Translations under genes and position numbers: made by a program | Shown: in pieces, positions 931-61,552 of the stretch | Layout of the letters: the number at the start of each line of letters is the position of its first letter | How positions within the stretch are numbered: the stretch's first letter is position 1 | Assembly: GCF_003334385.1 (NCBI RefSeq) | Contig: NZ_QOWN01000016.1 | Length of the DNA: 64,000 nt | Reading direction: 5' to 3' (one strand) | Source of the DNA: Escherichia coli | GTDB taxonomy: Bacteria; Pseudomonadota; Gammaproteobacteria; Enterobacterales; Enterobacteriaceae | Notes under the pieces: generated by a model | The model's input: only the letters and a program-made list of their open reading frames with translations | What the model was told of the DNA's origin: nothing | The model's database searches: none

Positions 931-984
931 AACGGTCCCCTCGCCCCTTTGGGGTGAGGGTTAGGGTGAGGGGAACCCGTTGGC
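931..984. repeat. GC-rich imperfect palindromic extragenic element (CCCCTC / GGGTGAGGG motif family)
   Basis: AACGGTCCCCTCGCCCCTTTGGGGTGAGGGTTAGGGTGAGGGGAACCCGTT in the convergent tldD/aaeR gap. Confidence 0.6.
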
Positions 985-1017
985 ACAGGTTTGTACAACG
1001 TAACAGTACAATATGAA

Positions 1018-1947
1018 TTACTTCTCTTTCCCGCGCCCGTGCATCTCCTGAAACAATTTACCGACCTCAACAAAATAATCCGTCAGCGAGTTGATCACGA
1101 CCTGTACCTTCAGCGGCAGCTTATCTTTTTCGGTATATAACGCATAAACCGGGCGTGGATCTGACTGGTAACGCGGCAGCAGGATCTCCAGCTCCCCACG
1201 ATTGATCTCGTTGATCACCCACATCAGCGGCACGTAGGCGATCCCGGCACCCGCCGTCAGCCAGCGCACCAGCGTCATCGGATCATTAGTCACAAATCTT
1301 CCTTGTGGGATCAGGCGAGTCGAGATCCCTTCCGGTGCGATCAGTTCAAATTCATTGTCGGGCCGCACGCTGTATTCAAGCCATGAATGACTACTCAAAT
1401 CGGCGGGTTTTTCCGGTATGCCGTATTGTGTGAGATAGCTTTTCGCGGCGCACACCACCATTGGCATCGCGCCCAGACGGCGGGAAAACAGGCTGGAATC
1501 CTGCAACGCGCCGACGCGGATCACCACATCCAGACCGTCGGCAATCAGGTCGGGGGCTGGAATTCCGGTAACCAGATTGACGCTCAAACCTGGGTATTCT
1601 TTCAGCATTTTGGCTGTCAGCCCGGCGAGAACATTTTGTGCCATAGTTGAAGAACAGCCAATGCGTAGCGTCCCGATGGGGGTGTTATTGAAGGCATACA
1701 GTTGCTCATGAACATCCTGCACTTCATGAAGCATACGACGGCAGCCCTGGTAGTAAATTCTACCGGCTTCGGTCAGGCCAATGCTGCGTGTGCTACGGTT
1801 TAACAGCTTTACCTGCAACTCATCTTCCAGTTTTGATACCGTCTGACTGATGGACGAAACGCTCATCTGTAGCTGTCTGGCGGCGGCGGTAAAAGAGCCA
1901 AATTCAACTACTTTGGCAAACACCGACATGCGTTTTAGTCGTTCCAT
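1018..1947 (-). CDS. aaeR: LysR-family transcriptional regulator of aaeXAB
   Basis: 309 aa ORF, divergent from the aaeX-aaeA-aaeB operon; sequence recognised as AaeR. Confidence 0.9.
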   Translation of the reverse strand: MERLKRMSVFAKVVEFGSFTAAARQLQMSVSSISQTVSKLEDELQVKLLNRSTRSIGLTEAGRIYYQGCRRMLHEVQDVHEQLYAFNNTPIGTLRIGCSSTMAQNVLAGLTAKMLKEYPGLSVNLVTGIPAPDLIADGLDVVIRVGALQDSSLFSRRLGAMPMVVCAAKSYLTQYGIPEKPADLSSHSWLEYSVRPDNEFELIAPEGISTRLIPQGRFVTNDPMTLVRWLTAGAGIAYVPLMWVINEINRGELEILLPRYQSDPRPVYALYTEKDKLPLKVQVVINSLTDYFVEVGKLFQEMHGRGKEK

Positions 1948-3278: not shown

Positions 3279-5246
3279 ATGGGTATTTTCTCCATTGCTA
3301 ACCAACATATTCGCTTTGCGGTAAAACTGGCGACCGCCATTGTACTGGCGCTGTTTGTTGGCTTTCACTTCCAGCTGGAAACGCCACGCTGGGCGGTACT
3401 GACAGCGGCGATTGTTGCCGCCGGTCCGGCCTTTGCTGCGGGAGGTGAACCGTATTCTGGCGCTATTCGCTATCGTGGCTTTTTGCGCATCATCGGCACA
3501 TTTATTGGCTGTATTGCCGGACTGGTGATCATCATTGCGATGATCCGCGCACCATTATTGATGATTCTGGTGTGCTGTATCTGGGCCGGTTTTTGTACCT
3601 GGATATCCTCGCTGGTACGAATAGAAAACTCGTATGCGTGGGGGCTGGCCGGTTATACCGCGCTGATCATTGTGATCACCATTCAGCCGGAACCATTGCT
3701 TACGCCGCAGTTTGCCGTCGAACGTTGTAGCGAGATCGTTATCGGTATTGTGTGTGCGATTATGGCGGATTTGCTCTTTTCTCCGCGATCGATCAAACAA
3801 GAAGTGGATCGAGAGCTGGAAAGTTTGCTGGTCGCGCAATATCAATTAATGCAACTCTGTATCAAGCATGGCGATGGTGAAGTTGTCGATAAAGCCTGGG
3901 GCGACCTGGTGCGACGCACCACGGCGCTACAAGGCATGCGCAGCAACCTGAATATGGAATCTTCCCGCTGGGCGCGGGCCAATCGACGTTTAAAAGCGAT
4001 CAATACGCTATCGCTGACGCTGATTACCCAATCCTGCGAAACTTATCTTATTCAGAATACGCGCCCGGAATTGATCACTGATACTTTCCGCGAATTTTTT
4101 GACACGCCGGTAGAAACCGCGCAGGACGTCCACAAGCAGCTCAAACGCCTGCGGAGAGTTATCGCCTGGACCGGGGAACGGGAAACGCCTGTCACCATTT
4201 ATAGCTGGGTCGCGGCGGCAACGCGTTATCAGCTTCTCAAGCGCGGCGTTATCAGTAACACAAAAATCAACGCCACCGAAGAAGAGATCCTGCAAGGCGA
4301 ACCGGAAGTAAAAGTAGAGTCAGCCGAACGTCATCATGCAATGGTTAACTTCTGGCGAACCACACTTTCCTGCATTCTGGGCACGCTTTTCTGGCTGTGG
4401 ACGGGCTGGACTTCCGGCAGTGGTGCAATGGTGATGATTGCGGTAGTGACGTCACTGGCAATGCGTTTGCCGAATCCACGCATGGTGGCGATCGACTTTA
4501 TCTACGGGACGCTGGCCGCGCTGCCGTTAGGGCTGCTCTACTTTTTGGTGATTATCCCTAATACCCAACAGAGCATGTTGCTGCTGTGCATTAGCCTGGC
4601 AGTGCTGGGATTCTTCCTCGGTATAGAAGTACAGAAACGGCGACTGGGCTCGATGGGGGCACTGGCCAGCACCATAAATATTATCGTGCTGGATAACCCG
4701 ATGACTTTCCATTTCAGTCAGTTTCTCGACAGCGCATTAGGGCAAATCGTCGGCTGTGTGCTCGCGTTCACCGTTATTTTGCTGGTGCGGGATAAATCGC
4801 GCGACAGGACCGGACGTGTACTGCTTAATCAGTTTGTTTCTGCCGCTGTTTCCGCGATGACTACCAATGTGGCACGTCGTAAAGAGAACCACCTCCCGGC
4901 ACTTTATCAGCAGCTGTTTTTGCTGATGAATAAGTTCCCAGGGGATTTGCCGAAATTTCGCCTGGCGCTGACGATGATTATCGCGCACCAGCGCCTGCGT
5001 GATGCACCGATCCCGGTTAACGAGGATTTATCGGCGTTTCACCGACAAATGCGCCGCACAGCAGACCATGTGATATCTGCCCGTAGCGATGATAAACGTC
5101 GTCGGTACTTTGGCCAGTTGCTGGAAGAACTGGAAATCTACCAGGAAAAGCTACGCATCTGGCAAGCGCCACCGCAGGTGACGGAACCGGTAAATCGGCT
5201 GGCGGGGATGCTCCATAAGTATCAACATGCGTTGACCGATAGTTAA
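3279..5246 (+). CDS. aaeB: p-Hydroxybenzoate efflux pump subunit AaeB
   Basis: 655 aa multi-pass membrane protein 5 bp downstream of aaeA; recognised as AaeB. Confidence 0.9.
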
Positions 5247-17890: not shown

Positions 17891-18784
17891 ATGGCAACGA
17901 ATTTACGTGGCGTAATGGCTGCACTCCTGACTCCTTTTGACCAACAACAAGCACTGGATAAAGCGAGTCTGCGTCGCCTGGTTCAGTTCAATATTCAGCA
18001 GGGCATCGACGGTTTATACGTGGGTGGTTCGACCGGCGAGGCCTTTGTACAAAGCCTTTCCGAGCGTGAACAGGTACTGGAAATCGTCGCCGAAGAGGCG
18101 AAAGGTAAGATTAAACTCATCGCCCACGTCGGTTGCGTCAGCACCGCCGAAAGCCAACAACTTGCGGCATCGGCTAAACGTTATGGCTTCGATGCCGTCT
18201 CCGCCGTCACGCCGTTCTACTATCCTTTCAGCTTTGAAGAACACTGCGATCACTATCGGGCAATTATTGATTCGGCGGATGGTTTGCCGATGGTGGTGTA
18301 CAACATTCCAGCCCTGAGTGGGGTAAAACTGACCCTGGATCAGATCAACACACTTGTTACATTGCCTGGCGTAGGTGCGCTGAAACAGACCTCTGGCGAT
18401 CTCTATCAGATGGAGCAGATCCGTCGTGAACATCCTGATCTTGTGCTCTATAACGGTTACGACGAAATCTTCGCCTCTGGTCTGCTGGCGGGCGCTGATG
18501 GTGGTATCGGCAGTACCTACAACATCATGGGCTGGCGCTATCAGGGGATCGTTAAGGCGCTGAAAGAAGGCGATATCCAGACCGCGCAGAAACTGCAAAC
18601 TGAATGCAATAAAGTCATTGATTTACTGATCAAAACGGGCGTATTCCGCGGCCTGAAAACTGTCCTCCATTATATGGATGTCGTTTCTGTGCCGCTGTGC
18701 CGCAAACCGTTTGGACCGGTAGATGAAAAATATCTGCCAGAACTGAAGGCGCTGGCCCAGCAGTTGATGCAAGAGCGCGGGTGA
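17891..18784 (+). CDS. nanA: N-acetylneuraminate lyase
   Basis: 297 aa; recognised as NanA. Confidence 0.95.
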
Positions 18785-18789
18785 GTTGT

Positions 18790-18820
18790 TTCCCCTCGCT
18801 CGCCCCTACCGGGTGAGGGG
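18790..18820. repeat. GC-rich palindromic extragenic element of the same family
   Basis: TTCCCCTCGCTCGCCCCTACCGGGTGAGGGG immediately after the nanA stop. Confidence 0.6.
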
Positions 18821-18892
18821 AAATAAACGCATCTGTACCCTACAATTTTCATACCAAAGCGTGTGGGCATCGCCCACCGCGGGAGACTCACA

Positions 18893-20383
18893 ATGAGTAC
18901 TACAACCCAGAATATCCCGTGGTATCGCCATCTCAACCGTGCACAATGGCGCGCATTTTCCGCTGCCTGGTTGGGATATCTGCTTGACGGTTTTGATTTC
19001 GTTTTAATCGCCCTGGTACTCACCGAAGTACAAGGTGAATTCGGGCTGACGACGGTGCAGGCGGCAAGTCTGATCTCTGCAGCCTTTATCTCTCGCTGGT
19101 TCGGCGGCCTGATGCTCGGCGCTATGGGTGACCGCTACGGGCGTCGTCTGGCAATGGTCACCAGCATCGTTCTCTTCTCGGCCGGGACGCTGGCCTGCGG
19201 CTTTGCGCCAGGCTACATCACCATGTTTATCGCTCGTCTGGTCATCGGCATGGGGATGGCGGGTGAATACGGTTCCAGCGCCACCTATGTCATTGAAAGC
19301 TGGCCAAAACATCTGCGTAACAAAGCCAGTGGTTTTTTGATTTCAGGCTTCTCTGTGGGGGCCGTCGTTGCCGCTCAGGTCTATAGCCTGGTGGTTCCGG
19401 TCTGGGGCTGGCGTGCGCTGTTCTTTATCGGCATTTTGCCAATCATCTTTGCTCTCTGGCTGCGTAAAAACATCCCGGAAGCGGAAGACTGGAAAGAGAA
19501 ACACGCAGGTAAAGCACCAGTACGCACAATGGTGGATATTCTCTACCGTGGTGAACATCGCATTGCCAATATCGTAATGACACTGGCGGCGGCTACTGCG
19601 CTGTGGTTCTGCTTCGCCGGTAACCTGCAAAATGCCGCGATCGTCGCTGTTCTTGGGCTGTTATGCGCCGCAATCTTTATCAGCTTTATGGTGCAGAGTA
19701 CAGGCAAACGCTGGCCAACGGGCGTAATGCTGATGGTGGTCGTGTTGTTTGCTTTCCTCTACTCATGGCCGATTCAGGCGCTGCTGCCAACGTATCTGAA
19801 AACCGATCTGGCTTATAACCCGCATACTGTAGCCAATGTGCTGTTCTTTAGTGGCTTTGGCGCGGCGGTGGGATGCTGCGTAGGTGGCTTCCTCGGTGAC
19901 TGGCTGGGAACCCGCAAAGCGTACGTTTGTAGCCTGCTGGCCTCGCAGCTGCTGATTATTCCGGTATTTGCGATTGGCGGCGCAAACGTCTGGGTGCTCG
20001 GTCTGTTACTGTTCTTCCAGCAAATGCTTGGACAAGGGATCGCCGGGATCTTACCAAAACTGATTGGCGGTTATTTCGATACCGACCAGCGTGCAGCGGG
20101 CCTGGGCTTTACCTACAACGTTGGCGCATTGGGCGGTGCACTGGCCCCAATCATCGGCGCGTTGATCGCTCAACGTCTGGATCTGGGTACTGCGCTGGCA
20201 TCGCTCTCGTTCAGTCTGACGTTCGTGGTGATCCTGCTGATTGGGCTGGATATGCCTTCTCGCGTTCAGCGTTGGTTGCGCCCGGAAGCGTTGCGTACTC
20301 ATGACGCTATCGACGGTAAACCATTCAGCGGTGCCGTGCCGTTTGGCAGCGCCAAAAACGATTTAGTCAAAACCAAAAGTTAA
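18893..20383 (+). CDS. nanT: Sialic acid MFS transporter
   Basis: 496 aa from [15 protein letters not shown]; the track ORF is over-extended by 10 codons. Confidence 0.93.
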
Positions 20384-22453: not shown

Positions 22454-22472
22454 AACTTAGTTCGTTTTAAAG

Positions 22473-22497
22473 ATTCTGCAGACACTGTCTGCAGAAT
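22473..22497. repeat. Palindromic element, CAGAC-N3-GTCTG family, copy 1 (extragenic, between nanQ and yhcG)
   Basis: ATTCTGCAGAC-act-GTCTGCAGAAT with perfect 11 bp arms; lies in the 59 bp gap between the two convergent genes. Confidence 0.8.
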
Positions 22498-22512
22498 TCG
22501 AAACCGCTGAAA

Positions 22513-23640
22513 TTAACGGCGTCTATAGCCTTCCTCTAGCACCGCCTGTGTTCGAACGAGTTCATCTGCGAGTCGTTTCTCATCAGGTAGTTGCATCTTA
22601 TATTCGCTTGCCAGAACGGTGTTAGGCAAACCTGCCAGAGCATAATGCGCTTCTCCGGCTCCTTTCTCTGCACAGAGAACCAGACCGATGGGCGGATTTT
22701 CATCCGGTAGCGTCCAGTGCTCTTTGGCGTAGTTGAGATACATATTCATCTGTCCGGCATCGCTATAGCTGAATTTGCCCACTTTTAGATCGACGATTAG
22801 CAGGCAGCGTAAACGGCGGTGGAAAAACAGCAGATCGACACGAAACCAGTTGTCATCAATGCGTAACCTTCGCTGCCGACCAACAAAGGCAAAATCATCC
22901 CCAAGTTCCAGCATGAAATCCATCAGGTGGTTGATCAGCGCCTCCTCAAAATCGGATTCTGAATATTCATCTTTCAATTCCAGAAATTCGAGCACAAAGG
23001 GATCGCGTATCGCCTGTTGCGGAAGAATATGCGTCTCGGCAGGAGCGTGTTGTTGCAGCATGGCTGATTTGTCATGTGACAGTAGTGTCCGCTCATAAAA
23101 CTGGGTCGCAATTTGCCGCTCTAGCTGGCGAACAGACCAGCCACAGCGGAGCGTCTCTTTTTCATAAAAGCTGCGGGCGTCAGCGTTTTTAACGGAAAGT
23201 AAACGGACGTAGGTGGACCTGGGCAAGGGGAAAGATTTGGCAGACAGCGTCTGCCAAATCTTTGCCGATGGGAATTCTGCAGACGGTGTCTGCGGAATTC
23301 CCAATGGTGTTAATTCGCCAGACATTGTCTGGCGAATTTCAACATGTTGAAAAAAGAGGTAAAAAAGCCTCATTTGGCGTAAGTTTTTTGCAGAGAACCC
23401 ACGCTTATACCTTAGACATAAATCCTTTGATAGTCGCTTGATTAGCTGCGCACCATACGCAGCCCTGGCCTCGCCACCTTGTTCAAATTCGACAATTCGT
23501 CGGCCAATTTCCTGGTACGTCGCGGTCATTAACGCGTTAACGCTACGTACCGTTTCCGTCCGGGCGCTATCGACCAGATGAATAATACCGTCGTGGATTT
23601 GCTGGTAGCCTGCTGTGGTTCCTTCTGAGAGCGATTCCAT
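22513..23640 (-). CDS. yhcG: YhcG, DUF1016-type protein with a predicted PDDEXK nuclease-like C-terminal region; function unknown
   Basis: 375 aa ORF convergent with nanQ; recognised as YhcG; the centre carries three in-frame 39 bp palindromic repeats (23231-23338). Confidence 0.8.
   Translation of the reverse strand: MESLSEGTTAGYQQIHDGIIHLVDSARTETVRSVNALMTATYQEIGRRIVEFEQGGEARAAYGAQLIKRLSKDLCLRYKRGFSAKNLRQMRLFYLFFQHVEIRQTMSGELTPLGIPQTPSAEFPSAKIWQTLSAKSFPLPRSTYVRLLSVKNADARSFYEKETLRCGWSVRQLERQIATQFYERTLLSHDKSAMLQQHAPAETHILPQQAIRDPFVLEFLELKDEYSESDFEEALINHLMDFMLELGDDFAFVGRQRRLRIDDNWFRVDLLFFHRRLRCLLIVDLKVGKFSYSDAGQMNMYLNYAKEHWTLPDENPPIGLVLCAEKGAGEAHYALAGLPNTVLASEYKMQLPDEKRLADELVRTQAVLEEGYRRR
23231..23338. 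repeat. Three tandem palindromic elements of the same family (copies 2-4), 39 bp period, inside the yhcG reading frame
   Basis: AAAGATTTGGCAGAC-agc-GTCTGCCAAATCTTT (perfect 15 bp arms), GGGAATTCTGCAGAC-ggt-GTCTGCGGAATTCCC (one mismatch), AATTCGCCAGAC-att-GTCTGGCGAATT (perfect 12 bp arms); centres 39 bp apart; the minus strand translates as ...RQTMSGELTPLGIPQTPSAEFPSAKIWQTLSAKSFP... within YhcG. Confidence 0.85.
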
Positions 23641-29092: not shown

Positions 29093-29611
29093 ATGAACAT
29101 ATCCTTAATAACAAATTTATTTTTTAAAATAAAAAGCTGAAGCAGTATATATATCTGTTTGTGAATGTAAATAAATAACTCGTTCAGAAATAGCCAACTT
29201 GCTGGGATGTATTTATTTAATGAATTTTATAGTTACGATCATGTGAATAATAAGGTGCTGGTGAGGTGGTTTGTGGTGATAATTATTCATTACATGAATG
29301 TTTGCGCTGAAAAATAGGAAAATATATAGATAATTAAGGATAATATATTGGTTTTTTATATTCATATTTTGTATATTAATATCGAGACAATTTACATGGA
29401 ATGAAAAGACTGAATAGCTTGCAGAATCGGTATTGTCAGAGGTGTTAACAAGTAATTGAGACGGATTGTAAATGAGAAATTGCTTGATGTGCTTCACTCA
29501 TCAGACTTGGTGAACAAAGCACAATTTATTGAAAATTATCCCTATTATAGGAAAGGTCAAACGCTCATGCCGCATTTGCCAGAAAACAACGCGCACTTCG
29601 TCAGTAATTTG

Positions 29612-29636
29612 ATTCGCCAGACACAGTCTGGCGAAT
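29612..29636. repeat. Palindromic element, CAGAC-N3-GTCTG family, copy 5 (extragenic, just downstream of gltD)
   Basis: ATTCGCCAGAC-aca-GTCTGGCGAAT with perfect 11 bp arms; arms identical to intragenic copy 4. Confidence 0.8.
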
Positions 29637-29651
29637 TCATTGTTACCTCGC

Positions 29652-39579: not shown

Positions 39580-39692
39580 CCCCGGCTAGACCGGGGTGCG
39601 CGAATACTGCGCCAACACCAGGGAAATCTTGGCTGCGCCGTAAATTATTATGATGAGTTACAAGGGCACAGCACTGTTTTTCAGGCCGCACG
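39571..39692 (-). ncRNA. arcZ: ArcZ small regulatory RNA (Hfq-dependent), convergent with arcB
   Basis: The minus-strand sequence reads GTGCGGCCTGAAAAACAGTGCTGTGCCC...CACCCCGGTCTAGCCGGGGTCATTTTTT, matching my recollection of ArcZ including its terminator hairpin and U-tract; the U-tract is complementary to the arcB stop region. Confidence 0.85.
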
Positions 39693-48015: not shown

Positions 48016-49002
48016 TTACACTACGCCTGCACGCAGTAAATCATGCATATGTAACACACCGAGTAAATGGTCGCCATCGGCAACCATCACGGAGGTGATA
48101 TGGCGGGACTGCATTAAGTTCAGTGCCTCAACGGCCAGAATGCCAGGGCGCACACGTATTCCCCCCGGCGTCATCACATCGGCAATACTTAACTGACGAA
48201 CATCCACGCCCATATCGAAGACACGGCGTAAATCACCGTCGGTAAAGATGCCTTCAATCATCATATTGTCATCGCAAATGACAGTCATACCAAGATTTTT
48301 GCGGGTAACTTCCAGCAACGCGTCACGCAGACTGGCCGTTTTCTTAACATGCGGGATCTCATCGCCCGTATGCATAATATCGTTTACGCGCAGCAGAAGT
48401 TTACGACCCAGTGCGCCGCCTGGGTGTGAGAGCGCAAAATCTTCAGCAGTAAAGCCGCGTGCTTTTAACAGCGCGACAGCGAGGGCATCGCCCATAACCA
48501 GCGTGGCGGTGGTGCTGCTGGTCGGTGCCAGCCCTAACGGACAGGCTTCTTTCGCTACTTTAACACACAGATGCACATCTGCGGCGCGCGCCATGCTGCT
48601 CTCCGGGCGACCGGTGATGCAGATTAACGGTACGTGAAGACGCTTAAGCACTGGAATTAAGGCCGTGATTTCGCTGGATTCACCAGAGTTAGAGATAGCA
48701 ATCACCACATCCTGTGGGGTAACCATGCCTAAATCACCATGCGCGGCTTCACCAGGATGGACGAAAAATGAAGGTGTACCGGTGCTGGCAAACGTTGCCG
48801 CCATTTTTCGCCCAATATGCCCCGATTTTCCCATCCCCATGACGACAACTTTCCCTTTACACCAGAACATCTTTTCACAGGCAAGCGTGAAATTCTGATT
48901 GATGTATTGATCAAGCTCCGCCAGGCATTCACGTTCAATCGCCAGGACTTCTTTACCTGCTTGCTGAAAGTCAAAACCCGGTTGTAACTCTACGTGCGAC
49001 AT
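48016..49002 (-). CDS. kdsD: D-arabinose-5-phosphate isomerase
   Basis: 328 aa from MSHVELQPGFDFQQAGKEV with SIS and tandem CBS domains; the track ORF is over-extended by 7 codons. Confidence 0.93.
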   Translation of the reverse strand: MSHVELQPGFDFQQAGKEVLAIERECLAELDQYINQNFTLACEKMFWCKGKVVVMGMGKSGHIGRKMAATFASTGTPSFFVHPGEAAHGDLGMVTPQDVVIAISNSGESSEITALIPVLKRLHVPLICITGRPESSMARAADVHLCVKVAKEACPLGLAPTSSTTATLVMGDALAVALLKARGFTAEDFALSHPGGALGRKLLLRVNDIMHTGDEIPHVKKTASLRDALLEVTRKNLGMTVICDDNMMIEGIFTDGDLRRVFDMGVDVRQLSIADVMTPGGIRVRPGILAVEALNLMQSRHITSVMVADGDHLLGVLHMHDLLRAGVV

Positions 49003-53305: not shown

Positions 53306-53464
53306 ATTTTTTCAGGCCGGATATGGCGTTAACCGCCTGTCCGGCAAACCTGCCTGCAAGTCGAGCCTTGTCTGATTTATCAGCGAGGCTTTTTGCTTAT
53401 TTATGCCAGCGCAACTTTGCTCTAAGATGTTTCGCTGGTTTATTAACTGATGATTGAAGATCCC

Positions 53465-59710: not shown

Positions 59711-59808
<98 letters not shown>

Positions 59809-61305: not shown

Positions 61306-61414
61306 AATCTCGCGCTAACAACCTGGAATCGAGCCGTCATACTACGGCGCAACGCCCTATAAAGTAAACGATGACCCTTCGGGAACTTCAGGGTAAAATG
61401 ACTATCAAAATGTG

Positions 61415-61448
61415 AATTGTAGCTGACCTGGGACTTGTACCCGGGTCG
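61415..61448 (+). terminator. greA leader intrinsic terminator, which would release a short GraL-type leader RNA
   Basis: Hairpin GACCTGGG-acttgta-CCCGGGTC (one G-U pair) followed by GGTATTTTTTT, about 100 bp upstream of the greA start. Confidence 0.55.
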
Positions 61449-61552
61449 GTATTTTTTTGCTTCTGGCCCCGGTAAGGAGTTATGCCGGGCAGGCCGAACA
61501 GCCGGGGTGGGTGAAGACTTGCCCTATCAGGAATATTCAAGAGGTATAACAA

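Follow-up and report, generated by a model that had tools for sequence, protein, structure and literature searches.

A BoxC repeat in the tldD–aaeR gap and a probable BoxC derivative at the nanA–nanT junction of Escherichia coli as candidate mRNA 3′-end hairpins

The window analysed here, a stretch of 64,000 nucleotides, is a K-12-like segment of the E. coli chromosome in which tldD on the plus strand is followed by aaeR on the minus strand and, further along, by nanA and nanT on the plus strand. For the first ~25 kb, the corresponding K-12 coordinate (NC_000913.3) equals 3,391,467 minus the window coordinate. Two GC-rich palindromes in this region are treated below as elements 1 and 2. Element 1 is located where tldD and aaeR converge, in the 132 nt that separate the stop codon of tldD (882–884) from that of aaeR (~1016–1018, minus strand); the letters at 931–984 read AACGGTCCCCTCGCCCCTTTGGGGTGAGGGTTAGGGTGAGGGGAACCCGTTGGC and can be laid out as AACGG-T-CCCCTCGCCCC-TTT-GGGGTGAGGG-TTA-GGGTGAGGGG-AA-CCCGTTGGC. 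Its core (938–973, plus strand) consists of block 1, CCCTCGCCCC (938–947), followed by the loop TTT, block 2, GGGGTGAGGG (951–960), followed by the loop TTA, and block 3, GGGTGAGGGG (964–973). Outer pairing between AACGG (931–935) and CCGTT (977–981) extends this to a palindromic unit of 931–981 that as a whole has no strand, and the G-rich strand is the sense strand of the tldD mRNA. Element 2, defined by RNA folding, conservation and alignment, is a two-block hairpin at the nanA–nanT junction (18789–18823, plus strand; TTTCCCCTCGCTCGCCCCTACCGGGTGAGGGGAAA), in which the 5′ arm TTTCCCCTCGCTCG (18789–18802) is joined by the loop CCCCTAC to the 3′ arm CGGGTGAGGGGAAA (18810–18823). The stop codon of nanA occupies 18782–18784 (plus strand) and nanT starts at 18893; an extended helix begins at 18785, 1 nt past the nanA stop, and the GC core at 18789, 5 nt past it. 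A preliminary description of this DNA had reported such palindromes at 931–984 and after nanA, at two operon ends, and we find both of them where it placed them, but the second site is the intra-operon junction between nanA and nanT and not the end of an operon.

The two palindromes are real and are not products of chance. For the string GGGTGAGGG, 0.32 occurrences are expected in the 64 kb and three are present, each at one of the two elements, and none of 100 shuffles contained three or more occurrences. Likewise, CCCCTC-N13-GGGTGAGGGG with at most two mismatches has three matches, all at the two elements, where 0.02 are expected. A relaxed scan for CCCTC-N3-40-GAGGG found no further site in the window.

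Element 1 is, with near certainty, a known member of the BoxC/PIT/TMECO/HPG1 family, every sequence-level defining feature of which it displays; by the strict consensus it is copy no. 14 of the 23 copies of this enterobacterial repeat. To our knowledge, no function has been accepted for BoxC after 30 years, and we know of no transposase or mobile context for it. We take the name BoxC to go back to Bergler (1992) and Bachellier, and the term PIT element to Hoyne and Maher (2000). The identification was made by using the literal string GGGTTAGGGTGAGGG as a literature query, which led to two studies (Holder et al., 2015; Kaplan et al., 2016). TMECO no. 14 in Table 1 of the former is CCCTCGCCCCTTTGGGGTGAGGGTTAGGGTGAGGGG, at NC_000913.3 3,390,529–3,390,494 (PMC4666352), and element 1 (938–973) matches it letter for letter, as a type A core with one mismatch. 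The same site is listed as HPGQ 37, aaeR/tldD, in the HPG1 G-quadruplex/hairpin group (Kaplan et al., 2016, Table 1, PMC5100583); BoxC corresponds to their HPG1/HPG2 motif. The published three-block expression CCCTCNCCC-N3-6-GGGNGAGGG-N3-GGGNGAGGG is matched at 938–972, a canonical four-tract G4 motif lies within the element at 951–973, and a profile of 23 K-12 copies finds it with E=3.8e-11 (nhmmer). According to Holder et al. (PMC4666352), who catalogued 23 intrastrand-triplex motifs (TMECO) in MG1655 in their Table 1, TMECO, the PIT element of Hoyne and Maher and what was called BoxC in the 1990s are one and the same. An earlier survey counted 32 copies of BoxC, 56 bp in length, in E. coli (PMC2267715). 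BoxC is a family of ~23–32 copies per K-12 genome that is distinct from REP, and the ~50–56 bp repeat of the older literature corresponds to the full unit of element 1 (931–981).

The published Table 1 was used as our list of K-12 copies, with its coordinates confirmed at two loci; the taxonomic range of the motif had also been described by Holder et al. (PMC4666352). The copy between fabI and ycjD (no. 9) is found exactly where it was published and is nearly identical with element 1, also in its flanks. The flank GGGGACCGTTCG of element 1 is shared with the lldD copy, and the hrpB and fabI copies carry close variants of it (GGGGACCGATCG and GGGGACCGTATT). A half element resembling BoxC (CCCCCTCGCTCTTTCAGGGAGAGGGTGA; 3395–3422 of the retrieved K-12 ycjD locus) overlaps the 3′ end of the ycjD coding sequence in K-12, ~170 nt from BoxC no. 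9. When a 66-nt query for element 1 was run with blastn, each of the 5,426 complete E. coli genomes gave matches, the median being 18 places per genome and MG1655 having 20; almost all of the 93,647 places are chromosomal, with only 67 on plasmids. In the preliminary description, both palindromes were likened to members of a dispersed family of extragenic repeats other than REP, a view that a lack of further copies would have contradicted. Since further genomic copies do exist, the suggestion holds for element 1, which is part of a dispersed family. By our own tally of the loci in Table 1 of Kaplan et al. (PMC5100583), 16 of 18 K-12 BoxC loci are located 3′ of at least one gene, and 7 lie in gaps between convergent genes.

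By direct reading, element 1 bears no likeness to the REP pair at 59711–59808. The PU (REP/BIME) consensus GCCGGATG...CATCCGGC is unrelated to the BoxC consensus CCCTCNCCC...GGGNGAGGG, and it is absent from both elements when these are read against the REP pair of the window and against orthologous junctions that carry REP. What both elements share with REP/BIME is that they are extragenic GC-rich imperfect palindromes of a kind usually found 3′ of genes or inside operons. REP has ~10-fold more copies than BoxC, and its association with RAYT transposases is known. In the window, REP-type palindromes (GCCGGATA.../...CATCCGGCA) are found at 53308–53346 and 59711–59808, the latter being a BIME pair after obgE that was cited in the preliminary description. 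An Rfam scan of the whole window at gathering thresholds gave no match at either element, and the RefSeq annotation of K-12 has no feature at the BoxC, the nanA–nanT hairpin or the REP pair.

Element 1 is not the same in all E. coli. Set against a 201-nt query, the tldD–aaeR spacer varies in 6-nt steps and is 201, 195 or 189 nt long; in the alignment, most strains are without the GGGTGA of block 2, and some are without a further 6 nt. Judged by identity bands, which are a proxy and not an allele count, ~37% of the records have the three-block form, ~52% the 6-nt deletion and ~10% a shorter form, shortened alleles being present in ~60% of E. coli records. On both strands, the hairpins of all examined alleles have fold energies between −27.6 and −35.9 kcal/mol, whereas neither the triplex consensus nor the G4 motif is present outside the three-block alleles. 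At the tldD–aaeR site, the hairpin is thus retained and the non-B-DNA potential is dispensable. In a construct of E. coli O127:H6 EPEC1 (NZ_LT903847.1), an IS4-like element, ISEc13, sits inside the tldD–aaeR BoxC directly after GGGGTT, and the aaeR side is replaced (~1600–1630 of the retrieved locus). Insertion of IS elements into palindromes is known for REP, and the case here may be of that kind.

The family membership of element 2 is less straightforward. It does not match the published three-block expression, having two blocks only, and it is missing from Table 1 of both catalogues (PMC4666352; PMC5100583). In nhmmer searches it reached E=4.5 with the profile of all 23 copies and, when block 2 was deleted from the model, E=0.23 (9.1 bits); neither value is significant, and with both models it is the second-best match in the window. 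A blastn query with element 2 gives a median of 1 place per E. coli genome, and there are no paralogues at the sequence level; of 5,410 E. coli genomes, 5,280 have the element at 99% identity or more. What it has in common with BoxC is block 1 (CCCTCGC..CCCC), block 3 (GGGTGAGGGG), the T...GGGGAA flanks and a remnant of a type-B-like loop (ACC/CCG). Unlike BoxC, it is without the middle G block, and since this block and its G-tracts are missing it is unable to form a triplex or a G4. As it fails the three-block definition, we do not file element 2 as a BoxC member. Consensus, profile and copy number alone do not place it in a dispersed family, and the orthologous junctions of other genera described below, which do carry BoxC, support its membership indirectly.

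We retrieved the nanA locus from 80 species and read the nanA–nanT spacer in each. The two-block hairpin is kept in all sampled Escherichia (E. coli, E. albertii, E. whittamii and the cryptic clades). The changes in its stem among these species fall on the 5′ arm and preserve pairing in the sense RNA, either through G·U or by turning a wobble into a Watson–Crick pair. In Pseudocitrobacter faecalis, the same spacer holds a minus-strand three-block BoxC together with a slightly degenerate plus-strand copy, in Enterobacter sp. kpr-6 it holds an inverted pair of three-block copies, and in Kluyvera a reduced BoxC-like form is found. The spacer of P. vendiensis contains five three-block copies, four in tandem ~73–75 bp apart and the fifth inverted; the array unit is BoxC plus a AAACCGCACCCACATAACCGCTGGCGCGGTCGGT spacer (2401–2726 of the retrieved locus), which suggests local amplification of a composite unit. 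When aligned with MAFFT, the Escherichia hairpin aligns to the plus-strand, type-B-like BoxC of Pseudocitrobacter and kpr-6, with blocks 1 and 3 in register, the region of block 2 absent and the flank towards nanT in common. Holder et al. have described inverted TMECO pairs that collapse into simple stem-loops (PMC4666352). The presence of full BoxC copies at the same position, the aligned blocks, the loss of block 2 seen at tldD–aaeR and the precedent of pair collapse together make element 2 probably a BoxC derivative. We therefore consider it quite probable, from these sequence comparisons, that element 2 is a BoxC without the middle G block that became fixed in Escherichia directly after nanA, and it may have arisen either from a single copy that lost block 2 or from a collapsed inverted pair.

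It could be argued that the three-block element acts as a DNA triplex or a G4/hairpin switch that stalls polymerases, promotes instability or modulates the transcription of neighbouring genes. Element 1 has the exact three-block arrangement with four G-tracts, and the indels at its locus are of the slippage type. For BoxC copies other than element 1, triplex formation in vitro has been demonstrated by CD and NMR, together with an association with variable regions (PMC4666352), and CD spectra of HPG motifs bore the signatures of hairpins and G4 (Kaplan et al., 2016, PMC5100583). However, in the account of earlier work that Holder et al. give (PMC4666352), in vivo DMS footprinting showed no protection of the guanines and the in vivo tests of Maher were negative. 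Moreover, element 2 and the majority of element 1 alleles have lost a block and are nevertheless kept as hairpins. We regard such a role at the DNA level as quite improbable.

A more serious contender is that both elements are neutral or selfish repeats, spread or amplified by an unknown mechanism, decaying by slippage and tolerated 3′ of genes for no selected function. The copy at tldD–aaeR shows strong polymorphism in presence and absence as well as in length, in P. vendiensis four copies in tandem are joined by a fifth, inverted one, and the nanA–nanT slot can be held by unrelated repeat families or by nothing at all: REP/BIME elements occupy it in Citrobacter, Salmonella, Enterobacter and Lelliottia, unrelated GC hairpins in Raoultella and others, and in two Trabulsiella the spacer is 32–33 nt long and has no hairpin. 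Holder et al. also found that the surroundings of TMECO are more variable and that neither position nor function is biased in a way that would point to gene regulation (PMC4666352). On the other hand, element 2 is nearly fixed in E. coli and shows only pairing-compatible changes across Escherichia, hairpin stability is kept in every tldD–aaeR allele examined, and the sequence directly after nanA folds at −15 kcal/mol or below in 74 of the 80 species, so that a stable structure recurs at exactly this position. By a rough motif classifier, ~49 of these structures are REP-like and 7 BoxC-like, with 4 more BoxC-like by eye, and the rest are other hairpins. The missing mobile context and the rarity of plasmid copies also speak against a repeat that merely spreads. 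On balance, we think it rather unlikely that the elements are without selected function.

We instead favor, with moderate confidence, the explanation that element 1 is a BoxC and element 2 its two-block derivative, and that the hairpins formed by both protect mRNA 3′ ends while Rho acts downstream. As RNA, element 1 folds at −32.2 kcal/mol from the plus strand and −30.2 kcal/mol from the minus strand, the outer stem included. For element 2, the sense fold reaches −31.2 kcal/mol (z=−5.5), whereas the antisense fold is weaker (−19.1 kcal/mol, z=−1.9) because two of its pairs are G·U. No T-run follows either stem on either strand, the tails being GGGGAACCCGTT and GGGGAAATAAACG, and a consensus scan for promoters and terminators was negative on both strands of both elements. 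Strong GC-rich stems that directly follow genes might suggest intrinsic (Rho-independent) partial terminators, partial termination within the nan operon having been raised as a possibility in the preliminary description, and coverage across nanA–nanT does fall, from 164 to 58 without bicyclomycin (BCM). Yet without a U-tract neither element is an intrinsic terminator, and PIT elements had no promoter or terminator activity in the tests of the Maher group, as reported in Holder et al. (PMC4666352). Taken together, the absent T-run, the negative scan and the PIT tests leave the proposal of intrinsic partial termination unsupported. Further points against it are that the fall in coverage is mostly relieved by bicyclomycin and that the tldD transcript reads through the BoxC, to be terminated by Rho ~350 nt later. 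We consider intrinsic termination hardly credible.

The data on Rho come from RNA-seq with and without bicyclomycin, from which Adams et al. (2021, PMC7815308, supplementary file 2) defined Rho regions in 800-nt windows and hence at low resolution. In the nanA–nanT spacer they report a Rho score maximum of 2.10 (p=6.2e-5) at K-12 3372577 (minus strand), which is window 18890 on the plus strand. With bicyclomycin, coverage there changes from 205 upstream to 152 downstream, in contrast to the steeper drop without it (PMC7815308). The drop is Rho-dependent since it is largely relieved by the drug, but it is not attributable to the hairpin because the Rho score resolves 800 nt. The stabilising hairpin and coverage drop envisaged in the preliminary description are thus compatible with the published values, although these do not tie the drop to the hairpin. 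A stronger Rho region (score 5.99, p=5.5e-18) lies at K-12 3390148 (minus strand), or window 1319 on the plus strand, in read-through of the tldD transcript that runs antisense to aaeR; its distance from the BoxC, in the downstream direction, is 346 nt. Outside the window, another (score 3.64) lies at K-12 3504972 (plus strand), 80 nt past BoxC no. 15.

The Term-seq tables of the same study (PMC7815308) place RNA 3′ ends 3–5 nt past the BoxC hairpins at three other K-12 copies, at 164636 (plus strand) on the hrpB side, at 3781065 (plus strand) as the primary end of lldD and at 3959467 (minus strand) for ppiC, where the end is just past the block 1/block 2 hairpin. Of the 18 K-12 BoxC loci checked, some of them only in part, no more than three coincide with a listed 3′ end. 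The tables hold no 3′ end at elements 1 and 2, and nan and aaeR were poorly expressed in the conditions used; our literature search gave no usable description of the nanA–nanT stem-loop or of nan transcripts. Dar and Sorek (2018) described Rho-dependent transcripts that end just past stem-loops without U-tracts, which block PNPase and RNase II, and REP325, when located inside an operon, has been described as a partly Rho-dependent attenuator that also stabilises the upstream mRNA (2026 preprint). Both of our elements are like the Dar and Sorek class in having a stable stem-loop without U-tract and a published Rho region downstream; the third hallmark, a 3′ end just past the stem, has among BoxC copies been mapped at the three others and not at these two.

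By analogy with REP, the two hairpins could thus be exonuclease-blocking structures coupled to Rho-dependent termination or attenuation, a mechanism for and against which we see about equal weight. Each transcribed element would fold into a very stable GC-rich hairpin without U-tract that does not by itself stop RNA polymerase; Rho would end or attenuate transcription further downstream, and the 3′–5′ exonucleases PNPase and RNase II would then trim the transcript back to the hairpin. In this way, the hairpin would set and protect the upstream 3′ end, that of tldD or aaeR at the first site and that of a nanA-only message at the second, and the latter would result in higher expression of nanA than of nanT. 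With REP/BIME both elements would then have in common that they are exonuclease-resistant transcribed hairpins linked with Rho-dependent termination.

The short distance between the nanA stop codon and element 2 allows for another effect, compatible with the explanation we favor. As the helix begins directly past the stop, a terminating ribosome must melt it, and stalling could lower the output of NanA or trigger cleavage. Liang, Rudd and Deutscher reportedly observed in 2015 that REPs within ~15 nt of stop codons cause stalling with lower output or cleavage. The extended stem and GC core of element 2 start well within such a distance, and across the 80 species the first paired base is in most cases 0–12 nt past the nanA stop. 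This spacing could, however, merely reflect how compact operon junctions are, and we see little probability of translation-coupled control of nanA by the hairpin.

A broader reading of the variety of structures found after nanA is offered tentatively, and we think it somewhat doubtful. BoxC, REP and lineage-specific hairpins may be interchangeable cassettes that enterobacteria recruited to the same operon junctions, each serving as a 3′-end stabiliser and Rho-coupled attenuator. Selection would then keep the hairpin and not the triplex or G4, and this would be why two-block derivatives persist.

That element 1 belongs to a repeat family is correct but already known, the site having been listed, each time by another name, on at least three occasions, and most likely both elements are ordinary biology as protective hairpins of mRNA 3′ ends. 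We point out that these findings matter little beyond annotation. The minor additions made here are that the nanA–nanT hairpin is linked to BoxC by comparative synteny, that comparisons of alleles and species show conservation of the hairpin and not of the triplex or G4 potential, and that published Term-seq and BCM data place 3′ ends or Rho regions at or past several BoxC copies. The combined evidence argues for a REP-like role of BoxC in RNA.

Some further features of the window were noted in passing. Directly upstream of the Shine–Dalgarno sequence of nanT (GGGAGA, 18881–18886; ATG at 18893) lies a small hairpin, GTGGGC-ATC-GCCCAC with outer GCG/CGC (18862–18878), which has no match in Rfam and is adjoined by the published Rho score maximum at 18890. 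It is conserved, with two covarying pairs, in Escherichia, Kluyvera, Pseudocitrobacter, Raoultella, Leclercia, Siccibacter and Phytobacter; at the equivalent position in Buttiauxella another hairpin is found, and Citrobacter and Salmonella are without one. Near-perfect palindromes of 26–29 nt (ATTCTGCAGACAnnGTCTGCAGAAT / AATTCGCCAGACAnnGTCTGGCGAATT) occur at 22471–22499, 23235–23337 and 29610–29637, one right after yhcH, three in a row within yhcG, which encodes a PDDEXK nuclease, and one past the gltD stop codon. As blastn finds them at 2–4 places per E. coli genome, they are a local set and not a dispersed family. The only other canonical G4 motif of the window, GGGGATGGGAAAATCGGGGCATATTGGG (48811–48838, minus strand), is unrelated to BoxC. 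Between the nan region and obgE (window ~19000–59700), the offset to MG1655 (NC_000913.3) shifts by ~1.2 kb, as would be expected if the window is without the IS5 that presumably interrupts yhcE in MG1655. Finally, the Rfam scan recovered, at gathering thresholds and as expected for this region of K-12, the ArcZ sRNA (39584–39691, minus strand) and the greA leader (61336–61457, plus strand).
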